Virus record (IMG/VR): IMGVR_UViG_3300012347_000366
Location: 1-64,000 of that record
Direction: 5' to 3' (one strand)
Length of the DNA: 64,000 nucleotides
Source: a virus
Taxonomy: Duplodnaviria; Heunggongvirae; Uroviricota; Caudoviricetes
The notes below the pieces were generated by a model that worked only from the letters and a program-made list of their open reading frames with translations, did no database searches and was not told where the DNA came from. How positions within the stretch are numbered: position 1 is the first letter of the stretch; each line of letters begins with the position of its first letter. The translations under genes and the position numbers were made by a program. Shown in pieces: positions 338 to 10,200 of the stretch.

Positions 338-409
338 GTAGGTGTGGCGGAACGGCTACGCGTCGGATTGCAAATCCGTTCAATGCAGGTTCGAGTCCTG
401 TCACCTACT
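338..409 (+). tRNA. tRNA-Cys (anticodon GCA)
   Basis: Manual cloverleaf: acceptor GTAGGTG/CACCTAC, anticodon stem CGGA/TCCG with loop TTGCAAA, T-arm GCAGG-TTCGAGT-CCTGT, followed by CCA. Confidence 0.75.
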
Positions 410-487
410 CCAGCTTAGCCAAAGTCCATGATGGCTTAAAATAATATTGGCTACCAAAAGGTCAACGCTAATGGTGTAAGCTCACAG

Positions 488-517
488 TTGATAGTTTTTT
501 AGAGAGGTTTCTATAAA
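488..517 (+). promoter_or_regulatory. candidate sigma70-like promoter upstream of the tRNA (TTGATA-18-TATAAA)
   Basis: Hexamers read directly from sequence; spacer is 18 nt, so weaker than the others. Confidence 0.3.
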
Positions 518-530
518 AAACCTGCCCAAT

Positions 531-603
531 GCCGGTTTAGCTCAGTTGGTAGAGCAGCTCCCTTGTAACGAGAAGGTCGCGTGTTCGATTCATGCAACCG
601 GCA
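531..603 (+). tRNA. tRNA, probably Thr (anticodon UGU), with a weakly paired anticodon stem
   Basis: Acceptor GCCGGTT/AACCGGC, D-arm GCTCAGTTGGTAGAGC, T-arm GCGTG-TTCGATT-CATGC, then CCA. Anticodon loop CTTGTAA, but only 3 of 5 stem pairs form. Confidence 0.6.
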
Positions 604-605
604 CC

Positions 606-671
606 ATATATAAGTACACGTCCTAAATGAAAGAAACCTCTGAGGGCTTTAGCGGGGTGTACTTATATATG
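606..671. repeat. perfect 15-bp inverted repeat (606-620 CATATATAAGTACAC / 657-671 GTGTACTTATATATG) around a 36-nt loop, directly abutting the 3' end of the preceding tRNA
   Basis: Read directly; no T-run follows, so it is not a classic terminator. Confidence 0.7.
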
Positions 672-700
672 GTTGTATGAAGCGGACAGAAACAGGTTCT

Positions 701-732
701 GGACGCGGGTTCGACTCCCGCCAGGTCCACCA
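701..732 (+). ncRNA. tRNA-like 3' half or minihelix (T-arm GCGGG-TTCGACT-CCCGC, 3' acceptor strand CAGGTCC-A-CCA) with no convincing 5' half
   Basis: Canonical T-loop and CCA end are seen. The best 5' acceptor partner is GGGCTTT at 644-650 (6 of 7 pairs), but no D-arm or anticodon arm folds. Confidence 0.35.
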
Positions 733-744
733 TAAGGAGTTTGT

Positions 745-849
745 ATGTGGCAAAGATTAGTTAACTGGTTGTTTGATTCTGATAGTTGGGAAGCAACTAA
801 AGAAGCGGCAATTTGGACAGTTGACTGGGTCAACGGAGATACAGACTGA
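745..849 (+). CDS. hypothetical 34-aa Trp-rich peptide (MWQRLVNWLFDSDSWEATKEAAIWTVDWVNGDTD)
   Basis: AAGGAG Shine-Dalgarno at 734-739, 6 nt before the ATG; below the ORF-track size cutoff. Confidence 0.35.
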   Translation: MWQRLVNWLFDSDSWEATKEAAIWTVDWVNGDTD

Positions 850-917
850 TTATGATGGGCCTGCCATGGTTTCGACAGGGCAAAGAGTAAACAAGTAGAC
901 AACTCGGCAATGCGACA

Positions 918-1033
918 GCCGTAGGGTTGGGGATTCCTGGCCGTAACAGCAAAACAAAAATAAACGCAAACGATACACAGTTCGCATTGGTAGCCTAACA
1001 GCCGCCTAGGGTTTGGCCAGTTCCTCGTAACAG
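918..1033 (+). repeat. two copies of a ~33-nt motif (CAGCCGTAGGGTTGGGGATTCCTGGCCGTAACAG / CAGCCGCCTAGGGTTTGGCCAGTTCCTCGTAACAG) in a 200-nt non-coding gap
   Basis: Direct comparison of the two segments. Confidence 0.4.
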
Positions 1034-1059
1034 AATACTGGCCCTAATTTAAGGAACTT

Positions 1060-1653
1060 ATGAAGTCTAATATTCTCGACCCTAAATTGTTTCAGTCGGA
1101 CAAATACTCAAACAATTTTACCAAGCCAGTCGCACACGTTCATGAGTTTTATTTGTCGGGGCCTATTGGCGACGCTGAAGAATACATTGAATGGTTTGAC
1201 GTTATTCGTAACGCATCGGCAACTGATACAATTCGTATTTACATCAACAGTCCTGGTGGTGATTTATTTACCACGCTGCAGTTCTTGCGTGTAATGTCGG
1301 ACACAGATGCTACCGTTGTGTGCAGTGTAGAAGGCGCTTGTATGAGTGCAGCTACCATGATTTTCCTACACGGTCACTCACAAGAAGTAACCCCACATAG
1401 CTTGTTTATGTTCCACAACTATAGTGCTGGAACATTTGGCAAAGGCGGTGAAATGTACGATCAGCTACAGTTTGAGCGTACTTGGTCAGAAAACTTCATG
1501 ACTGAAGTGTATCAAGGCTTTTTGACACCTGAAGAAATCTCCTCAATGATGCACAACAAAGACATTTGGATGGGTTCTGAAGAAGTTGTCCGTCGTCTAA
1601 CAGCTATGCAAGCACAGCGTGAAGCTGAAGCACAGGCCACAGAAGCCGAATAA
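1060..1653 (+). CDS. ClpP-like serine protease (peptidase S14 family)
   Basis: YINSPGGD...VCSVEGACMSAATMIFLHG matches the ClpP Ser-region G-x-S-x-A pattern; a His follows downstream. Confidence 0.6.
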   Translation: MKSNILDPKLFQSDKYSNNFTKPVAHVHEFYLSGPIGDAEEYIEWFDVIRNASATDTIRIYINSPGGDLFTTLQFLRVMSDTDATVVCSVEGACMSAATMIFLHGHSQEVTPHSLFMFHNYSAGTFGKGGEMYDQLQFERTWSENFMTEVYQGFLTPEEISSMMHNKDIWMGSEEVVRRLTAMQAQREAEAQATEAE

Positions 1654-1721
1654 ATCGCAGCGCAGTAAGTGTTATGCGCGTATATAAAACGAAATACTAG
1701 ATGCATGAGATGTGTGTCCTT

Positions 1722-1810
1722 GGAAAGTAATGCAGCGGGGATGGTCCTGCGACTGGCCTTGAAAACCAGGTTCTCAGAAATGGGATGGGGTTCGACTCCT
1801 CTGCTTTCCG
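1722..1810 (+). tRNA. tRNA-Ser (anticodon UGA), class II with long variable arm
   Basis: Acceptor GGAAAGT/GCTTTCC plus G plus CCA, anticodon loop CTTGAAA, long extra arm; closely parallels E. coli tRNA-Ser. Confidence 0.75.
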
Positions 1811-1888
1811 CCATAAGACAGCACACTTGGTGTGGCACATCCATTAAATCAAGCTGGTTTGAGTCCGGCAGCCACAGTGTGCTTTCTT

Positions 1889-2212
1889 ATGGCTATTTCA
1901 TTTAAAAACATCAAAGACCCTAAACTGGGGATAACTGACACAATCACTTTTGGCAAGCTAAAAGGTTGTCGAGTGTGCGATGTAGCCCAAGATCATTACG
2001 AATACTTAATCTGGGCGGAACGTTCTGGTTACGTTAAGTTTCAAACCGAGGCTATTGAGCTTATTCAAGAGCAGGCTAGCTTTGCTCGCTGGAAGATTCA
2101 CGAAGCCGAAGAAGTTGCCCCATACATGGATGGCAACAAATACGAATACTTGGCAGAAATTGCCAGTCGTCAAGACTATGACACATCTTTTGAAGATGAT
2201 GTTCCATTTTAA
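1889..2212 (+). CDS. hypothetical protein (ORF track 1832..2212; start moved to ATG 1889, downstream of the tRNA)
   Basis: The ORF-track start lies inside tRNA-Ser; the internal Met begins MAISFKN. Acidic C-terminus. Confidence 0.45.
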   Translation: MAISFKNIKDPKLGITDTITFGKLKGCRVCDVAQDHYEYLIWAERSGYVKFQTEAIELIQEQASFARWKIHEAEEVAPYMDGNKYEYLAEIASRQDYDTSFEDDVPF

Positions 2213-2213
2213 T

Positions 2214-2284
2214 GCGTGCATAGTTTAATGGTAAAATAGGACGTTGCCAACGTCTTGTCGAGAGTTCGATTCTCTCTGCCCGCA
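2214..2284 (+). tRNA. tRNA-Gly (anticodon GCC)
   Basis: Acceptor GCGTGCA/TGCCCGC, anticodon stem GACG/CGTC with loop TTGCCAA, T-arm GAGAG-TTCGATT-CTCTC, then A and CCA. Confidence 0.8.
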
Positions 2285-2321
2285 CCACAATTACCATTGC
2301 GCCAAACTGGCCAAAATCAAA

Positions 2322-2528
2322 ATGTATAAAGTTTACTGGACAGACAACTACGGCGAAGCAAAAAGTACTGAAATTGCTCAATTAGATAAAACATTGATAT
2401 ATGTAGACTTGTTACGCAAACAAGGTTACAACTACGTTACAATGGTTTCAGACTATGCTGACATGATTGGTAAACCAGGCGCACAAGGCGCTGGTAGTGA
2501 ATGTGTACCACAAATGTTAAACCCATGA
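2322..2528 (+). CDS. hypothetical protein (start adjusted to clear the tRNA)
   Basis: ORF track 2244..2528 begins inside tRNA-Gly; internal Met at 2322 (MYKVYWTDNYGEAK). Confidence 0.4.
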   Translation: MYKVYWTDNYGEAKSTEIAQLDKTLIYVDLLRKQGYNYVTMVSDYADMIGKPGAQGAGSECVPQMLNP

Positions 2529-2698
2529 GTGTGGAATCTCCTTGTGTAAAACTGTGCAAGATAGAGGACGGAGTTTGTGTGGGATGTAAACGAACTCCAG
2601 CAGAATTAACAGACTGGTACAAGCTATCAGACGAACAAAAACTAGAAATACTAGAAAAAATCAAACAGCGCGGGGTTGGTATAGTGGCTGTGCTCTAG
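2525..2698 (+). CDS. small Cys-rich protein (CVKLCKIEDGVCVGCKRTP), ATGA-overlapped with the upstream ORF
   Basis: ATG at 2525 overlaps the upstream TGA. The 3' end overlaps tRNA-Gly(UCC) by ~28 nt. Confidence 0.4.
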   Translation: MSVESPCVKLCKIEDGVCVGCKRTPAELTDWYKLSDEQKLEILEKIKQRGVGIVAVL

Positions 2699-2740
2699 CC
2701 TTCCAAGCTAGTGAGACGAGTTCGATCCTCGTACCCCGCT
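2670..2740 (+). tRNA. tRNA-Gly (anticodon UCC)
   Basis: Acceptor GCGGGGT/ACCCCGC, anticodon stem CTAGC/GCTAG with loop CTTCCAA, T-arm GACGA-GTTCGAT-CCTCG, then T and CCA. Confidence 0.8.
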
Positions 2741-2747
2741 CCAATTT

Positions 2748-2819
2748 GCATCCTTAGCTCAGCGGTAGAGCGGCTCTTTTACACGGAGCGGGTCGGCGGT
2801 TCAAACCCGTCAGGATGTA
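2748..2819 (+). tRNA. tRNA-Val (anticodon UAC)
   Basis: Acceptor GCATCCT/AGGATGT, D-arm GCTCAGCGGTAGAGC, anticodon stem GCTCT/GGAGC with loop TTTACAC, T-arm GGCGG-TTCAAAC-CCGTC, then CCA. Confidence 0.8.
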
Positions 2820-2916
2820 CCAATTAAAACCGCTAAGGACTAACTCGATGTACAGGAGTCTCCAGGGGATGCGGCAATTGGGGTTACCCTTGACCCTAAA
2901 CTACATAAATTTACAC

Positions 2917-2945
2917 TTGAACAAATCCCCTAAAGACGGTATAAT
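2917..2945 (+). promoter_or_regulatory. early sigma70-type promoter TTGAAC-17-TATAAT with upstream AAATTTACACTTG box; -10 lies in the loop of a 9-bp inverted repeat (CCCCTAAAG/CTTTAGGGG)
   Basis: Hexamers and 17-nt spacer read from sequence. Confidence 0.55.
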
Positions 2946-2973
2946 ATATACTTCTTTAGGGGATTTCTGCATT

Positions 2974-3324
2974 ATGAATCCAGATAAAATATTAACAATG
3001 GCAGAATTTGTGGCAGACTTAACAAAGTACCACAACATCGACATTAACTCAATACACGAATTACATCAAATCATGAACACAACAAAAATCACAAATCAAG
3101 CCACAATGCACGACACAGTGCGTAACAAACAGTTTATTATTGGTAGCTTTCAGCCAGCAACTGGACTTAGCTTTGCTGCTATTCCAACTGTGCAATATTC
3201 AGCAACACAAGCTCGTAGTGAGTGCAAACGCCTGGCTAAAATGTATCCAGGTAAGACATTTGTTTATGTGCAGCTGCAAGGTGCTGAAATGACTGTGCCA
3301 CAACCAACTAGTGTTTCAATCTAA
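2974..3324 (+). CDS. hypothetical protein (ORF track 2815..3324; start moved to ATG 2974, downstream of tRNA-Val and the promoter)
   Basis: Internal Met MNPDKIL sits at the expected distance from the promoter. Confidence 0.45.
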   Translation: MNPDKILTMAEFVADLTKYHNIDINSIHELHQIMNTTKITNQATMHDTVRNKQFIIGSFQPATGLSFAAIPTVQYSATQARSECKRLAKMYPGKTFVYVQLQGAEMTVPQPTSVSI

Positions 3325-3332
3325 GGAATTAT

Positions 3333-3629
3333 ATGCGTAAAATTGTATTGTTTTTACATACTGGCTACGTTGGCATGGACTCACATGAGTTTTGGGAAGT
3401 CTCAGATACTGCAACTGACGACGAGTTGTACGCACTATGCTGGGAACGAGCTAAAGACCATGCCGAAATGTACGGCATCTATCCACGTGAGGAATATGTG
3501 GATACTGAAGACTTTGATGAAGATGACGAGTCCTACTCCGACAACATCGAAGGCTATTTTGAAGACTACAATCCAGATGAACACGACGGCCACCGCGTTG
3601 GTAAGGACACTAGCTGGAGCTTATACTAA
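3333..3629 (+). CDS. small highly acidic protein (D/E-rich; DTEDFDEDDESYSDNIEGYFEDYNPDEHDGH)
   Basis: ORF track; AAGGA Shine-Dalgarno upstream; extreme acidic composition. Confidence 0.5.
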   Translation: MRKIVLFLHTGYVGMDSHEFWEVSDTATDDELYALCWERAKDHAEMYGIYPREEYVDTEDFDEDDESYSDNIEGYFEDYNPDEHDGHRVGKDTSWSLY

Positions 3630-4153
3630 TGGCTAATATATTTTTTGCTAGCGACCACCATATTGACCACGCTAATATTCTAACATTCAAACGTGACGAT
3701 GGCACTGCCTTACGCGAGTTTGAGTCAGTTAGTCACATGAATGAACATATTGTTAATTGTCACAACTCAGTGGTACGCCCAGGTGACAAAGTGTACTTTT
3801 TAGGTGACGTAACCATGAGTTCCAAGACTAGTGCACTAGATATTCTATATCGCATGAATGGTGAGAAAATTTTAATCAAAGGCAACCACGACTTGTGCAA
3901 ACTATCTGCGTACGCAGCACATTTCAAAGACGTTCGTGGTAGTCATCAGTTTGAGGGTCTAATCATGACCCATATACCAATTCACTCAGAGAGCTTAGCT
4001 CGCTGGGGATTAAATGTGCATGGACACCTACACTCAAACGTGGTAAAGATGCCGCTATCACAAATTCCAGACCGTCGTTATTTTAATGTTTCGATGGAAC
4101 GTATTAACTATACCCCTATTTCTCTAGAAGAGGTTAAAAAACAATGTCGGTAA
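3629..4153 (+). CDS. Ser/Thr protein phosphatase (calcineurin-like metallophosphoesterase)
   Basis: Motifs SDHHIDH, GD...YFLGD, GNHD and a downstream His cluster. Confidence 0.7.
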   Translation: MANIFFASDHHIDHANILTFKRDDGTALREFESVSHMNEHIVNCHNSVVRPGDKVYFLGDVTMSSKTSALDILYRMNGEKILIKGNHDLCKLSAYAAHFKDVRGSHQFEGLIMTHIPIHSESLARWGLNVHGHLHSNVVKMPLSQIPDRRYFNVSMERINYTPISLEEVKKQCR

Positions 4154-4596
4154 CATTACAAAACCTGGAGAGTGCCTTAGCCGGTGAATCCATGGCCTAT
4201 ACAAAGTATATGTATTTTGCCAAAATTGCTCGTGAAGAAGGTTATTCAGAAGTAGCTGACCACTTTGAGCATACTGCAAGCCAAGAACTAAAGCACGCTT
4301 GGGGTCACTTAGAACTATTAATTGGCAAGCCTAGTACAAAAGTTTGTTTGGAAAAAGCCATTGAAGGCGAAACCTACGAATACACAGAGATGTATCCATT
4401 GTTTGAAGCTAAGGCAATTCGTGAAGGTAATTACGAAGTTGCACAAGAAGCTCGTAACCAAACACAGGAATCTCGTGAGCACGCAGAAGCCTTTATCAAG
4501 GTTCTACAAAAAGCTGAAAAACGCTTTGCAGCACTCAAGCGCGTGGAGCAACGCCACGCAGAAGCATATCAACAAGTTTGGGAAACAGTAAAATGA
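4144..4596 (+). CDS. rubrerythrin/ferritin-like diiron protein lacking a fused rubredoxin domain
   Basis: Two E-x-x-H containing helices (EHTASQELKHAW; EGETYEYTEMY...REHAEAF) typical of a diiron four-helix bundle. Confidence 0.55.
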   Translation: MSVTLQNLESALAGESMAYTKYMYFAKIAREEGYSEVADHFEHTASQELKHAWGHLELLIGKPSTKVCLEKAIEGETYEYTEMYPLFEAKAIREGNYEVAQEARNQTQESREHAEAFIKVLQKAEKRFAALKRVEQRHAEAYQQVWETVK

Positions 4597-4727
4597 CATA
4601 TATTTGTGTAGTATGTGACCACGTTCACGATGAAGCCACCGAAGGTGCTTGGGACACTTTGCCTGATGACTTTGAGTGCCCTGAGTGTGGCGTAGGCAAA
4701 GAAGATTACGTTATTTTCGAGGACTAA
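4593..4727 (+). CDS. rubredoxin-like 44-aa protein (CVVCDHV...CPECG), ATGA-overlapped with the rubrerythrin-like ORF
   Basis: Two CxxC knuckles (C-V-V-C and C-P-E-C-G) at rubredoxin spacing; ATG at 4593 overlaps TGA at 4594-4596. Confidence 0.55.
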   Translation: MTYICVVCDHVHDEATEGAWDTLPDDFECPECGVGKEDYVIFED

Positions 4728-5147
4728 ATGCTAGAGTGCTTAATCTTAGGAGATTCGATTGCTGTTGGTGTTAGTGCCAAGCGTCCAGAGTGTGCCTCAT
4801 ATTCAAAAGGAGGAATTAACACTTGGCAGTGGAATAACAAATACCTAACTAAGAATTTATCTGCAAAAACAGTAATTATTAGTTTGGGTAGTAATGACCA
4901 CAAATATGTTAAAACTCGTCGTGAGTTGGAAAATATGCGTGAACTAGTTCAAGCTGACAGAGTTTACTGGATTCTTCCACACGGTAATTTAAAGGGCAGT
5001 GAAGTACCCATTGAACGTATTCAGCAATATGTAAACGAAGTTGCTGAAATGTATCAAGACGTGGTACTGCCGATCAAATACCCCACTAAAGATAATATCC
5101 ATCCCAGTGATCGGGGATACAAAGATTTAGTAGAAAAAACGCGCTGA
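4728..5147 (+). CDS. SGNH/GDSL-family hydrolase
   Basis: N-terminal GDS block (ILGDSIAVG), a later GSND block, and a C-terminal His region. Confidence 0.5.
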   Translation: MLECLILGDSIAVGVSAKRPECASYSKGGINTWQWNNKYLTKNLSAKTVIISLGSNDHKYVKTRRELENMRELVQADRVYWILPHGNLKGSEVPIERIQQYVNEVAEMYQDVVLPIKYPTKDNIHPSDRGYKDLVEKTR

Positions 5148-5214
5148 TAGCTCAGTTGGTTAGAGCAGCCGACTCATAATCGGTTGGTCGCGGGTTCAAG
5201 TCCTGCTCGGCGCA
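5141..5214 (+). tRNA. tRNA-Met (anticodon CAU); could be an Ile2-type if modified
   Basis: Acceptor GCGCTGA/TCGGCGC, anticodon stem CCGA/TCGG with loop CTCATAA, T-arm GCGGG-TTCAAGT-CCTGC, then A and CCA. Overlaps the stop of the upstream CDS. Confidence 0.8.
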
Positions 5215-5225
5215 CCACTTTTACA

Positions 5226-5253
5226 AGCCCCTCGTCGTGGAGGGGCTTTTTTG
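5226..5253 (+). terminator. rho-independent terminator (AGCCCCTC-GTCGTG-GAGGGGCT then TTTTTT)
   Basis: 8-bp GC-rich stem followed by a T-run. Confidence 0.7.
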
Positions 5254-5270
5254 TTTGTAAAAATATTCAC

Positions 5271-5299
5271 TTGAAATCTTTATTACTTTTTGATATAAT
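5271..5299 (+). promoter_or_regulatory. sigma70-type promoter TTGAAA-17-TATAAT
   Basis: Read from sequence. Confidence 0.5.
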
Positions 5300-5334
5300 T
5301 ATTCTTTAACAACACAAACTAACTTTAAAAACAC

Positions 5335-5700
5335 ATGAAAATTAATTTTGCCCAAGTTACAGCCGCTGACGTCGATATGTTTGGTGAACAAGGTCTTTTT
5401 GGCCCAGATGTTCGTGGTAACTTCTACTACAATCAACTAGAGTATGGTACTAATCCAGGCGGTACTGACGAAGTAGCTATCACTGACGGCGCTGAACGCT
5501 ATATGCCCATTGCCATTGATAGTATACCAGAACTTATTGTAGCTCTTGAAGAAGTCCTGCGTATTGCAGGTGAAATCAAATTTGCCAAAGAAATCACAAC
5601 ATACGTAGAAAGCGACTCAGAAGCCGATGTGGATAATTACCAAGTCAAACACCGCCCAGAATCCGTTCAAGAAGCTATTAAACGAGCTGCTTACTACTGA
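5335..5700 (+). CDS. hypothetical protein
   Basis: ORF track; sits downstream of the promoter. Confidence 0.45.
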   Translation: MKINFAQVTAADVDMFGEQGLFGPDVRGNFYYNQLEYGTNPGGTDEVAITDGAERYMPIAIDSIPELIVALEEVLRIAGEIKFAKEITTYVESDSEADVDNYQVKHRPESVQEAIKRAAYY

Positions 5701-7299: not shown

Positions 7300-7303
7300 T
7301 CCA

Positions 7304-7331
7304 AGGCGGCCCAGTGCCGCCTTTATCTTTT
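7304..7331 (+). terminator. rho-independent terminator (AGGCGGC-CCAGT-GCCGCCT then TTATCTTTT)
   Basis: Hairpin followed by a T-rich run. Confidence 0.6.
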
Positions 7332-7342
7332 AAGGAATCAGT

Positions 7343-7561
7343 ATGAAATTTACTCCAACAGATATTTCGACTCTCATGGATCACTATGTTATGACCAAAA
7401 ATCCTAAACTGGGTATTTTCAGTACTGATGCCGCTAGTGCTAATAAGCTCCATAAAATGGGCTTGATAGTAGACAAAGACCCAGGGAAGACAAATCGCCC
7501 CCTTACAGATAAGGGGTTGGCTTTGGCACAATTAATAGTTGACTACACAAACGAGGTATAA
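7343..7561 (+). CDS. hypothetical protein
   Basis: ORF track. Confidence 0.4.
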   Translation: MKFTPTDISTLMDHYVMTKNPKLGIFSTDAASANKLHKMGLIVDKDPGKTNRPLTDKGLALAQLIVDYTNEV

Positions 7562-7562
7562 T

Positions 7563-8189
7563 ATGGCAACACGCAAGAAATCTGCTAGTGAAGAAGAATT
7601 GATGACTCCAGCTAACATTAGTCGAGTTATCCGCCTACTTGAGCCTCAGGAAGAAGGTGTCAAGCCTATTACCAAGAAGGACGCTTGTCAGATTCTTGGT
7701 ATGTCATATAATACAACTCGTCTTGGTGCAATTATTGAGGAGTTCAAGCAAAAGCAGGCGCGTACCGCGCAACGCAAAGCTGAACTGCGAGGCAAGCCTG
7801 CTACCAAAGATGATATTGTTTTTATTATCTCAGAGTACTTAAGTGGTGAAACTGTGGACGCTATCTCCAAGATGACATATCGCAGTCCCACATTTATCAA
7901 GCGTATTCTAGAAGAAAACTCAGTGCCAATTCGTGTGCCTGGGTCAAGCTATTTCAATCCTGAAATGGTTCCAGACGGTGCTCAGCGTGATCGTTTCAAA
8001 GTTGGCGAAGTAGTTTACTCAACCAAGTACGACTCGACTGCGCTAGTTGAGTCTGAAAAGCTCACTGAAAAGTACGGATATATCTACCGCATCTTCTTGT
8101 TGTCAGACAAGTGGTTGCAGTCAGCATGGCAGGAACACTATGAGCTTGCCAGCCTACAACATCTTCGTGATCTAGGAGTACGGATTTGA
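7563..8189 (+). CDS. hypothetical protein, possible HTH DNA-binding (start moved to ATG 7563 to clear the upstream gene)
   Basis: ORF track 7539..8189; internal Met MATRKK directly follows the upstream stop and a GAGG Shine-Dalgarno. Confidence 0.4.
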   Translation: MATRKKSASEEELMTPANISRVIRLLEPQEEGVKPITKKDACQILGMSYNTTRLGAIIEEFKQKQARTAQRKAELRGKPATKDDIVFIISEYLSGETVDAISKMTYRSPTFIKRILEENSVPIRVPGSSYFNPEMVPDGAQRDRFKVGEVVYSTKYDSTALVESEKLTEKYGYIYRIFLLSDKWLQSAWQEHYELASLQHLRDLGVRI

Positions 8190-8350
8190 TTAAAATAATC
8201 ATTGTTTTTGCACTAGTAGCACTACTAGTGGCTTTTGTTTACCATTCGGTTAGCAAGTTTAGTCTTAATGAGTACAAACTTGCTTTTAAAGTTGGGGCGG
8301 CAGCCACAGCTTCCCTTTTAATTCTTTTTGCTATCACACAACTGTTCTAA
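8186..8350 (+). CDS. small hydrophobic membrane protein (54 aa, TTG start, two predicted helices)
   Basis: GGAG 7 nt upstream of TTG at 8186; its stop TAA abuts the ATG of the SPFH gene at 8351. Confidence 0.3.
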   Translation: MIKIIIVFALVALLVAFVYHSVSKFSLNEYKLAFKVGAAATASLLILFAITQLF

Positions 8351-9163
8351 ATGAAAAATATCTTTAAAATTTCTGCTGTTATCGCCGCTGTTGCACTGAC
8401 CAGTGCTTGCACTCGTATTGAAACTGGCGAGGTTGGTGTTCGTGTTGACGCTTACAAACAAGTACAGCCAGGTGAATTGTTGCCAGGCAGCATGAACCAA
8501 ACTATTATTGGCGATGTGTTGACTTTTCCAACCAAAGATGTCAACGTCACGCTGGAAAATATGAGTCCAGTTGCCAAGGATAACTCTACAATGAAGGACT
8601 TGGACGCTGTGGTTGTTTACAACATCAATCCACAAGCTGTTGCTGAATTGTATTCCACTAAGAACAAAAGCTTTCATGCTGAGTTCAGAGGCGATACTTA
8701 CGTGATGTACAACTACATTGTACAAAATTCTCGCAATGCAATTTACAAAGCAGCACGAAAGTACGAAGCCCTGGACATGGCAGACAACCGCACTGAAATG
8801 GAGAACTACATCAAGGAAGAAATCACTCGTAACCTTGCTGAAGAAAAACTGGATGGCTCGATTACTATCAATCAGGTTATGATTCGTAATGTGCAACCAA
8901 GCGATACAGTTGTTGCTAGTGCAAATGACTTGGTTCGTTCTAAGAATGAGTTGAAGCAAAAGGAAGTTGAAGTTAAGACTGCCGAAGCAGAAGCCCGACG
9001 AATTGCGGCACTGGCACAAAACGCAGGTGCTATTCAGTACATGGATGCTCAAGCTCGTATGAAACAAGCTGAAGCAGCTTTTGAAACTGCCAAAGCTATT
9101 GCAACATTCAAAGGTAACACTTTGGTGATCGGTGCAGGTACCAACGTCAACGTTGGCAAGTAA
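8351..9163 (+). CDS. SPFH/band-7 (stomatin/prohibitin-like) domain lipoprotein
   Basis: Lipobox LTSAC after a signal peptide; SPFH-like core (GEVGVRVD...TKD...VVVYNI...) and an Ala/Glu-rich coiled-coil tail (KTAEAEARRIAALAQ). Confidence 0.55.
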   Translation: MKNIFKISAVIAAVALTSACTRIETGEVGVRVDAYKQVQPGELLPGSMNQTIIGDVLTFPTKDVNVTLENMSPVAKDNSTMKDLDAVVVYNINPQAVAELYSTKNKSFHAEFRGDTYVMYNYIVQNSRNAIYKAARKYEALDMADNRTEMENYIKEEITRNLAEEKLDGSITINQVMIRNVQPSDTVVASANDLVRSKNELKQKEVEVKTAEAEARRIAALAQNAGAIQYMDAQARMKQAEAAFETAKAIATFKGNTLVIGAGTNVNVGK

Positions 9164-9171
9164 GGAATACC

Positions 9172-9555
9172 ATGGACTTAGCACTACTAGTATACGCGAT
9201 CAGTACCATTAGTAGCATTAAAATACTACTAGGGTTGTTGATTGCACTATCGGCATTTGCTTGCCTTGGCCTACTTATCTACTTATCCGATCAATACGGT
9301 GACAGCAAAAAACCTTGGATATGGAAGCGTATTAAAATATGGTTTGGTATTGGATTATTTTGCTCGTTTATATCAGTGCTTTTACCTAGTCAGAAAACAG
9401 CGTATACAATGGTAGGTGCTTATGCCGCCCAGCGAGTTGCCGAGAATGAAAAAGTTCAGCAACTGTCAAGCAAAGTTCTAACTATTATTGAACAACGTCT
9501 TGATGGGTATATTCAAGAAGGCATCGACAACTCCAAAGAGAAAGATGTAAAATGA
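9172..9555 (+). CDS. two-TM membrane protein with a cytoplasmic tail, possible NfeD-like partner of the SPFH protein
   Basis: Two hydrophobic helices then a charged C-terminus; only 9 nt downstream of the SPFH gene. Confidence 0.4.
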   Translation: MDLALLVYAISTISSIKILLGLLIALSAFACLGLLIYLSDQYGDSKKPWIWKRIKIWFGIGLFCSFISVLLPSQKTAYTMVGAYAAQRVAENEKVQQLSSKVLTIIEQRLDGYIQEGIDNSKEKDVK

Positions 9556-9812
9556 GACACTGGCTATTTGCTGAACCTGTTGGTACAACAAATGAGCCTG
9601 TGTGGATGGTATACTCTGAGGATGCTATTATTGCCGAGTATTGGGATACTTGGCATCGTCAGGGTATTGCTTACAACAAAGCACACGGGCTTGACGTTAA
9701 CAAAAACATCAGCGCACACAACTGTATACAGGATTGGGTTGTAGTGCGTTGGGCAGTAGAAGCAACACCCGAAAACCTGCTTAAAATTATATCTGCGCCA
9801 AAACCCCAATAA
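9552..9812 (+). CDS. hypothetical protein
   Basis: ORF track; overlaps the upstream gene by 4 nt. Confidence 0.4.
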   Translation: MRHWLFAEPVGTTNEPVWMVYSEDAIIAEYWDTWHRQGIAYNKAHGLDVNKNISAHNCIQDWVVVRWAVEATPENLLKIISAPKPQ

Positions 9813-9818
9813 TTATAC

Positions 9819-10163
9819 ATGATAAAGATTACGTGGCCAGATCTATACTTTGGGCCTATCAACCTATGGAATGTACCAAAACTTATGGACGAGAATATAC
9901 TCTACTCAAAAACAATCGAAGAAAACATGGACAAAGGTTTTCAGGTTCGACTAGCCGTAAATGATTTTCGTGACACAACCTATATTCAGCTTCGTAAGTT
10001 CTTTTTAAGTTACGAAGGGGATTGGGTTCCTAGTCGTGAGGGTGTGAGTATTCCGGCCAGCACTGAAAACATCTATGCACTTCTAGATGGCCTGTTTGAA
10101 ATTTGCAGTGTGGCTGAAGGTGAAGAAATTATCAAACACTACAGTGAGCGGCTAAAATCCTAA
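9819..10163 (+). CDS. hypothetical protein
   Basis: ORF track. Confidence 0.4.
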   Translation: MIKITWPDLYFGPINLWNVPKLMDENILYSKTIEENMDKGFQVRLAVNDFRDTTYIQLRKFFLSYEGDWVPSREGVSIPASTENIYALLDGLFEICSVAEGEEIIKHYSERLKS

Positions 10164-10164
10164 C

Positions 10165-10193
10165 TTGTTTCTGTGACCCTAAACTGTTATAAT
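10165..10193 (+). promoter_or_regulatory. sigma70-type promoter TTGTTT-17-TATAAT; spacer contains the GACCCTAAA motif
   Basis: Read from sequence. Confidence 0.45.
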
Positions 10194-10200
10194 AATATCT

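Follow-up and report, generated by a model that had tools for sequence, protein, structure and literature searches.

The window analysed here is a stretch of 64,000 nucleotides, positions 1 to 64,000 of IMG/VR virus record IMGVR_UViG_3300012347_000366 (Caudoviricetes), and its sequence assigns it to a divergent T5-like phage. In its early region lies a gene for a 270-residue lipoprotein with an SPFH (band-7) domain, and directly 5' of this gene is a second, much smaller one for a protein of two membrane helices, which we call the hairpin protein. As organisers of membranes, SPFH proteins are ancient, and their roles in bacteria are largely unclear. An original prediction made from the sequence had picked out both genes together with a third open reading frame (ORF) that follows them, and all three can be read directly in the DNA, as follows:

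8174..8178, plus strand: Shine-Dalgarno sequence AGGAG, 7 nt 5' of the TTG start of the hairpin gene.
8186..8350, plus strand: TTG-start gene for the predicted 54-residue two-helix (hairpin) inner-membrane protein, recognised from its sequence, six T5-like loci and substitution ratios.
8351..9163, plus strand: gene for the 270-residue SPFH/band-7 lipoprotein, recognised by Pfam PF01145, phrog_200, an AlphaFold2 (AF2) model with Foldseek, and lipobox statistics.
Parts of the 270-residue protein: signal peptide, residues 1-19; lipobox, LTSA/C; SPFH domain, residues 22-215; helix, residues 185-252; strands, residues 257-267.
9172..9555, plus strand: gene for a 127-residue protein with two transmembrane (TM) segments and a helical C-terminal tail (phrog_3878, E 1.3e-25).

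Assignment of the 270-residue protein to the SPFH proteins, first made by eye, holds in profile searches of 8351..9163. Pfam Band_7 (PF01145, curated cut-off 23.6 bits) matches residues 22-215 with 61.3 bits and E 1.6e-16, covering profile positions 2-176 of 176, and phrog_200, a family named 'lipoprotein', matches with E 1.3e-35. The lipobox LTSAC that had been proposed is likewise borne out. By the PROSITE PS51257 rule the N-terminus, MKNIFKISAVIAAVALTSAC, has a lipobox, and the codon for the predicted lipidated Cys20 is at 8408-8410. When 239 database homologues were scored with the same rule, a lipobox Cys stood directly before the SPFH domain in 234 of them, the full rule applied in 229, and Thr-Arg followed the Cys in 224. 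Cys20 is invariant in the alignment, even where phage homologues of only 28-42% identity are included, and the SPFH domain begins one residue past it.

Structural modeling agrees with the profile matches. The AF2 model, built on an alignment of 70 sequences with 42-90% identity, has a predicted local distance difference test (pLDDT) score of 77.9, rising to about 90 in the core, and the Ala/Glu-rich tail noticed in the original prediction is modelled as a single long helix, residues 185-252, followed by two short C-terminal strands. When the PDB was searched with Foldseek, the top matches were all subunits of SPFH cages, namely PHB1/2, HflK/C, stomatin, erlin, QmcA and flotillin. Prohibitin 9o9z is the best of these (E 4e-11), and the full-length cage subunits 9o9z, 9cz2, 7vhq, 7wi3, 9z7u and 8z5g are all matched with probability 1.0, in alignments of about 250-290 columns and 13-20% identity. 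Given this low identity, the protein is a member of the SPFH superfamily that is near to no solved one. A PDB search with its single sequence found nothing, a PDB profile search reached only QmcA at E 0.05 and neither HflK nor HflC, and a search of NCBIfam returned nothing relevant for the window proteins. The full-length match of the monomer model to cage subunits is suggestive of a ring or dome assembled on a membrane.

These structural matches also bear on the main alternative to the reading that we favor below, an HflK/C-like effect on FtsH. As an HflK/C mimic, the phage dome would enclose or modulate FtsH or another inner-membrane quality-control factor and in this way stabilise membrane proteins of phage or host during infection. 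An exported SPFH protein must face the periplasm, as HflK/C does, and the HflK/C-FtsH cage of Escherichia coli is a periplasm-facing SPFH dome of the inner membrane such as we propose here. HflK/C chains (9cz2, 7vhq, 7wi3 and 9paw) are among the best full-length structural matches, the automatic name given by the Joint Genome Institute (JGI) is 'regulator of protease activity HflC', and a guess of the HflK/C type has also been made for Burkholderia phage CSP3 (PMC10269572). However, identity to HflK/C is just 14-20%, prohibitin, stomatin and erlin match equally well, and HflK and HflC have no detectable sequence similarity to the phage protein, as their absence from the PDB sequence searches illustrates. 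The E. coli cage is heteromeric, made of two paralogues that have N-terminal TM helices, and is bound to FtsH, whereas the phage has a single SPFH gene rather than an HflK/HflC pair, encoding a lipoprotein with no TM helix and no link to FtsH. On this evidence we regard an effect on FtsH as unlikely.

Constraint on the SPFH gene is, by substitution analysis, unusually strong for a phage accessory gene. The ratio of nonsynonymous to synonymous substitution (dN/dS) is 0.04-0.15, and synonymous sites are saturated (dS 1.0-1.8), yet the protein stays about 83% identical. High identity under such saturation points to selection and not to recent transfer.

The small ORF 5' of the SPFH gene has turned out to be a more conserved partner than was first supposed. 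It had been described as a two-helix, TTG-start ORF whose stop abuts the SPFH ATG, and this description is accurate. The TTG and the TGA of the preceding D2-like gene overlap (ATTTGA), the TAA directly precedes the SPFH start codon, and this arrangement of starts and stops is consistent with translational coupling. The protein is hydrophobic in two stretches, residues 1-19 and about 32-54. To compare related loci, we used a T5-like set of six, the window and five contigs designated L007, L008, L024, L053 and L078. All five contigs have an ORF at the same position, with ATG replacing TTG in L053; the motif TAGGAGT is kept in 6/6 loci; and dN/dS for the hairpin gene among these relatives is 0.12-0.31 (0.12-0.34 at its widest). 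Automatic gene calling skipped the ORF on two contigs with an identical SPFH protein. One contig of the set, L007 (IMG/VR contig 3300012933_000331, 102 kb), has an SPFH protein identical to that of the window, but its flanking proteins are only 94-99% identical, so the window derives from a close relative and not from this contig itself. Judged by these features, the 54-residue TTG ORF is a real gene under selection that encodes a two-helix membrane protein.

Pairing of a hairpin gene with an SPFH gene is found far outside the T5-like set. Scanning IMG/VR, we found 478 contigs that encode a relative of the SPFH protein, and our locus counts for the pair rest on the best 80 of these, in which the SPFH protein is 70-100% identical to that of the window; the SPFH ORF could be recovered in all but one of these 80 loci. 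Of those 79, 76 have, immediately 5' of the SPFH gene and on the same strand, an ORF of about 58 residues with two hydrophobic helices. Only 5 of the 80 loci have T5-like flanks, the rest being in mosaic contexts on contigs of up to 367 kb, and no other flanking gene family occurs in more than 22 loci. The small proteins of these loci align into one family, with an MIK start, a first helix, a short basic loop that often reads R-x-(M/L)-(S/T)-G-K-E-x3-L-T-K, a second helix and an ...LF end, and the 54-residue protein of the window has the topology of this family and its position directly 5' of the SPFH gene. A database search with the hairpin alignment returned at least 350 clusters; the 120 listed were all of 58 or 59 residues, and no Pfam domain was found among the matches listed. 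Working outward from one hairpin protein, we found a Band_7 gene next to it in 8/8 places examined.

These counts decide whether the small ORFs could be chance ORFs beside an SPFH gene that alone is real. Hydrophobic ORFs arise easily in AT-rich DNA, the 54-residue ORF is uncalled on window-like contigs, and its equivalents in L115 and L118 are uncalled too. Against this, length, topology and position are kept in nearly all the loci counted above, the database clusters are of nearly uniform size among the matches listed, dN/dS is below 0.35, the Shine-Dalgarno site is conserved, and the start codon is TTG or ATG at a fixed position. We therefore rejected a chance origin for the 54-residue ORF on the conservation across loci, the number of clusters, dN/dS and the Shine-Dalgarno site, and consider it scarcely credible that the SPFH gene alone is real.

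A third small gene was seen in part of this collection. In about 22 related loci, a gap of 95 nt between the hairpin and SPFH genes is filled by an ORF of 28 residues that encodes a single helix, has its own AAGGA site and ends with a stop that abuts the SPFH ATG. Its consensus is M-x-x-D-x-x-L-R-P-L-Y-F-x-L-G-F-x-x-C-F-x-L-F-x-x-G-V-I, and MINDRWLRPLYFALGFVFCFYLFSTGVI is an example; the loci include L010, L011 (spacer 3905-4000), L013, L014, L023, L025, L026 and L031. With this micropeptide the module would be one of three genes in about 22 loci. The 28-residue ORF is absent from the window.

Among cultured phages, the hairpin gene is 5' of the SPFH gene in 7/8 lineages, in which the SPFH protein is only 23-45% identical to that of the window. 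Carriers are CBA120 (Ackermannviridae), nACB1 (Schitoviridae), the Acinetobacter phages phiAB441 and AbTZA1 (the latter T4-like), BUCT-ZZ01 and B3 (both annotated as Synechococcus phages) and the Burkholderia jumbo phage BCSR5, which has a tRNA gene between its hairpin and SPFH genes. The closest comparison is with phrog_200 and Kuttervirus CBA120, where orf126 has orf127A 5' of it. The CBA120 protein shares with that of the window the SPFH fold, a lipobox Cys directly before the domain, a length of about 265 residues and an abutting small two-TM ORF. It differs in being only 28% identical and in lying on an Ackermannviridae backbone, its hairpin, of 69 residues, has no detectable homology to the hairpin family, and it is equally uncharacterised.

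The arrangement extends to cells as well. On the chromosome of Parvibium lacunae (Alcaligenaceae; L115, QPGB01000006.1), an uncalled two-TM ORF of 60 residues at 4805-4987 lies 13 nt 5' of an SPFH lipoprotein gene, with aspS on one side of the pair and NUDIX and phospholipase-D-type genes on the other. An earlier notion that the hairpin is phage specific was dropped on account of this ORF. The Parvibium lipoprotein is 45% identical to that of the window. Closest of the cellular homologues, at 56-67% identity, are chromosomal lipoproteins of predatory Bdellovibrionota (Bdellovibrio and Bacteriovorax) and of Leptospiraceae (L087-L097 and L099), and the cellular proteins, Parvibium included, share the start Cys-TRIETGEVG with that of the window, although they are encoded in chromosomal housekeeping contexts. 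Phage backbones of many unrelated kinds thus have the hairpin and SPFH pair, as does one bacterial chromosome.

In the window, the pair is set among early genes, as the original prediction had it, and two features 5' of it bear on its expression:

7303..7323, plus strand: terminator-like hairpin upstream of the D2-like gene, with an 8-bp stem, 6 GC pairs and a T-rich tail.
7539..8189, plus strand: D2-like early gene, context of the pair (phrog_3611, E 2e-48; identity in tblastn to D2 of Epseptimavirus and other Demerecviridae at most 37%).

With the D2-like gene 5' of the pair and a split gene for nicotinamide adenine dinucleotide (NAD)-dependent ligase and a D5-like gene 3' of it, the gene order is that of Epseptimavirus, where the interval from D2 to ligase is occupied by other small genes. 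A consensus scan, the sole basis of our terminator calls, found no comparable terminator-like site between the one at 7303..7323 and the ligase gene, so that D2, the hairpin ORF, the SPFH gene and the next small genes are probably co-transcribed. The overlap with D2 and the lack of a terminator-like site before the ligase gene together suggest that the hairpin and SPFH genes are expressed early. No SPFH homologue was found in cultured T5-like phages (Demerecviridae) at E<=1e-5, which agrees with the original prediction that such genes are outside the canonical T5 gene set, and megablast of 7500-10200 against 50,697 phage records gave no match and no close relative. That a phage copy is unusual, as had also been claimed, is correct among T5-like phages and incorrect overall, given phrog_200 and the 478 IMG/VR contigs. 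SPFH lipoproteins of phages have already been annotated in phrog_200 and in Kuttervirus, T4-like, N4-like and jumbo phages, and SPFH genes are widely annotated in phages and giant viruses.

Lysis cassettes typically include small two-TM proteins and lipoproteins, and CBA120 has a gene for an Rz-like spanin about 2.4 kb 5' of the module. The pair might accordingly be a device for lysis timing, with the hairpin as holin or antiholin and the lipoprotein as a spanin-like or holin-regulating partner. We consider this quite improbable, because the hairpin ends inside its second TM segment at a conserved ...LF stop with no charged C-terminal tail, because the module overlaps an early replication-region gene and would belong to an early operon, and because the pair also occurs on a bacterial chromosome, where aspS and a NUDIX gene flank it. 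Moreover, an endolysin gene adjoining the module was seen neither here nor in related loci, and the 270-residue SPFH fold is unlike known o-spanins. A specific assignment of the 54-residue protein as a class II holin was considered and rejected, as the protein ends in TM2 and is encoded in the early replication region.

How might a lipoprotein and a membrane hairpin work together? We judge it reasonably likely that the pair is an early two-gene cassette whose products form an SPFH dome, anchored by lipids, on the periplasmic face of the inner membrane. In such a scheme the SPFH protein would be exported and lipidated at Cys20 and, like HflK/C, prohibitin, stomatin and QmcA, would oligomerise by way of the long helix and the strands at its C-terminal end. 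The resulting dome would enclose a disc of membrane, with many N-terminal lipids in place of TM helices, and the hairpin would be its partner within the membrane, either a component of the rim or anchor or an enclosed client. The purpose may be to insulate or stabilise a patch of the host envelope early in infection. Where the dome would sit is indicated by the hairpin, which can only be an inner-membrane protein, and by variants in which an uncleaved TM anchor replaces the lipobox at the same position (P0313, P0319, P0320, P0323, L098 and phage B3). For P0319, encoded on a phage contig, a hairpin gene is still found 5' of the gene for the TM-anchored SPFH protein. An inner-membrane hairpin, together with these TM-anchored variants, favors the periplasmic face of the inner membrane.

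Several observations weigh against such a dome, and the first of them concern its placement. The residues at +2 and +3 after the Cys are Thr-Arg, and under the Lol rule of E. coli, which may not hold in the likely host, a lipoprotein without Asp at +2 goes to the outer membrane. In Pasteurella, the prophage-encoded SPFH protein PM0222 has been found in outer-membrane vesicles (PMC9872710). The same two points, with Cys-Thr-Arg as prevalent among the homologues as it is, would support a lipoprotein like T5 Llp or Cor that Lol sorts to the inner leaflet of the outer membrane, where it would block a receptor or make the membrane stiffer, with the hairpin acting separately in the inner membrane. 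Llp and Cor, for their part, are phage lipoproteins that serve as exclusion factors, and T5 Llp, a small protein of about 60 residues, is encoded beside the gene for the receptor-binding protein. Yet the TM-anchored variants cannot reach the outer membrane and still keep the juxtamembrane sequence and the hairpin gene, and strict linkage to an inner-membrane hairpin favors action in one membrane. The SPFH gene is, furthermore, among replication genes and not beside a gene for a receptor-binding protein, while PM0222 is not detectably related and our search for SPFH homologues gave no Pasteurella or Mannheimia matches. An outer-membrane role thus seems improbable to us.

The remaining points that weigh against the inner-membrane dome concern the hairpin as partner and the lack of functional precedent. 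No hairpin gene was found 5' of the SPFH gene in the Bdellovibrio, Bacteriovorax and Leptospiraceae loci, and Acinetobacter phage Bestia, the one exception among the cultured lineages, has an SPFH gene without a hairpin; the partner is therefore not obligatory. Hairpin identity is 44% where that of the SPFH proteins is 83%, falls to 27% between the T5-like clade and the rest, and correlates only weakly with SPFH identity (r = 0.23). With the family profile, the BCSR5 hairpin is recognised (24 bits) and that of Parvibium weakly so, and homology to the hairpins of CBA120 and the Acinetobacter phages is undetectable. Against the 54-residue protein of the window, the profile of the 58-residue family scores 13.7 bits, a value that 1 of 200 shuffled sequences surpasses, and the case for homology in sequence is accordingly marginal. 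From the low identities and weak profile matches, it is position, size and topology that are conserved in the hairpin more than sequence. PADLOC gave no match for the three proteins of the window at E<=0.1, and a search of the literature for functional studies of SPFH proteins in phages, which took in exclusion, anti-defence, cyanophages and Bdellovibrio, yielded annotations and speculation only.

By analogy, the closest mechanistic precedents for a dome with a small membrane partner are SPFH-NfeD operons and the SamG/SamH-SamI (YdjGHI) system of Bacillus subtilis. In operons such as QmcA-YbbJ of E. coli, PH1511-PH1510 of Pyrococcus and FloT-YuaF of B. subtilis, the gene for an SPFH scaffold shares a transcript with that for a small membrane partner, and our model aligns with QmcA (PDB 8z5g) over about 260 columns. 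Unlike in these operons, the phage partner has only 54-58 residues and no NfeD or OB-fold domain, and the phage SPFH protein is predicted to be lipid anchored and exported and not TM anchored. The original prediction had likened the locus to an SPFH/NfeD pair, and this analogy does not survive: neither the 54- nor the 127-residue protein matches NfeD (PF01957) or an OB fold at E<=1, the former is too short to hold such a domain, and only the gene order is similar. For B. subtilis, a preprint describes small membrane proteins, SamG and SamH, that recruit a TM-less SPFH protein, SamI, of the same operon (bioRxiv 10.64898/2026.02.06.704340). Compared by that description, SamI differs from the phage protein in being cytosolic and linked to PspA and in having no lipoprotein signal.

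As for the benefit of an inner-membrane dome to the phage, our leading guess, a speculative one, is exclusion of the DNA of superinfecting phages or protection of the membrane after injection. It follows by analogy from the early expression proposed for the pair in large virulent phages and from the role of phage lipoproteins as exclusion factors. T5 Llp, T1/phi80 Cor and T4 Imm and Sp are small envelope exclusion proteins of virulent phages, expressed early or constitutively, and some are lipoproteins. They serve here as a functional model and have no known relation to the pair in sequence or fold. More broadly, we put forward as a tentative and rather doubtful proposal that the pair, joined in many loci by the 28-residue micropeptide, is a widespread phage cage device that walls off a patch of inner membrane. 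If true, this would be a new class of envelope takeover or superinfection exclusion that has spread through large virulent phages and is very strongly constrained by purifying selection.

The reason for the presence of SPFH proteins in phages 'remains unclear' (PMC13239085). What our analysis adds is that the phage SPFH protein forms a fixed pair with a very small hairpin protein that gene callers mostly miss, joined in some loci by a 28-residue micropeptide, on hundreds of unrelated phage genomes. The pairing seems to be undescribed. Occurrence of an SPFH lipoprotein in a T5-like phage, a near-universal hairpin partner largely uncalled by annotation pipelines, and an optional third gene for the micropeptide all appear to be new. 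Routine gene calling overlooks such partner genes. Cultured carriers, such as Kuttervirus CBA120 with orf126 and orf127A and the Acinetobacter phages, make the arrangement testable, and a natural lipid-anchored variant of SPFH may be of use to cell biologists.

The 127-residue protein has a different history. Its two TM segments and its place 3' of the SPFH gene, where its ORF begins 8 nt past the SPFH stop, are as predicted, and its motif PSQKTAYTMVGAY, just before the helical tail, is conserved. It had been grouped with the other two proteins as part of one module, and this had to be given up, since its gene is missing from the closest T5-like relatives: among T5-like loci only the window and L007 have it, and the four others keep the hairpin and SPFH genes without it. 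Homologues without an SPFH gene occur in the structural region of phage AP22 and in T5-like phages of Aeromonas (AhSzq-1). By its distribution, the 127-residue protein is best viewed as an independent accessory membrane protein of a separate phage family. Phage phiAB441 (L119) is the only other phage seen to have both, with the pair at 2671-3750 and the 127-residue homologue 1.4 kb away at 5135-5545 within a single block of genes.

Other genes of the window were recorded in passing. Antisense to the entire SPFH gene is a 288-residue GTG ORF (8318-9184, minus strand), which is most likely spurious because all evidence of homology and selection is on the plus strand. Just 5' of the ligase gene, a 114-residue ORF (9819-10163, plus strand) contains a PC4-type single-stranded-DNA-binding domain (PF02229, E 5.5e-7). 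At 575-1063 on the plus strand is a phage-borne transfer-messenger RNA (tmRNA), unusual for a T5-like phage: Rfam beta_tmRNA (RF01850) matches with 113 bits against a gathering threshold of 84 (E 1e-33), tmRNA_permuted (RF04321) matches 671-998 with 118 bits, and ARAGORN reports a permuted tmRNA with the tag ANDTQFALVA*. A permuted tmRNA of betaproteobacterial type suggests a host of that group, and the host of the window phage is thus probably a betaproteobacterium. A cluster of tRNA genes (338-5217, plus strand) comprises Cys, Tyr, two Gly, Val and Met genes by ARAGORN, five of them confirmed by Rfam. This tRNA-rich early region also holds a rubrerythrin gene (4144-4596, plus strand; PF02915, E 1.9e-16) and a GDSL-lipase-like ORF (4728-5147, plus strand) just under the Pfam cut-off, both of them possible auxiliary genes.

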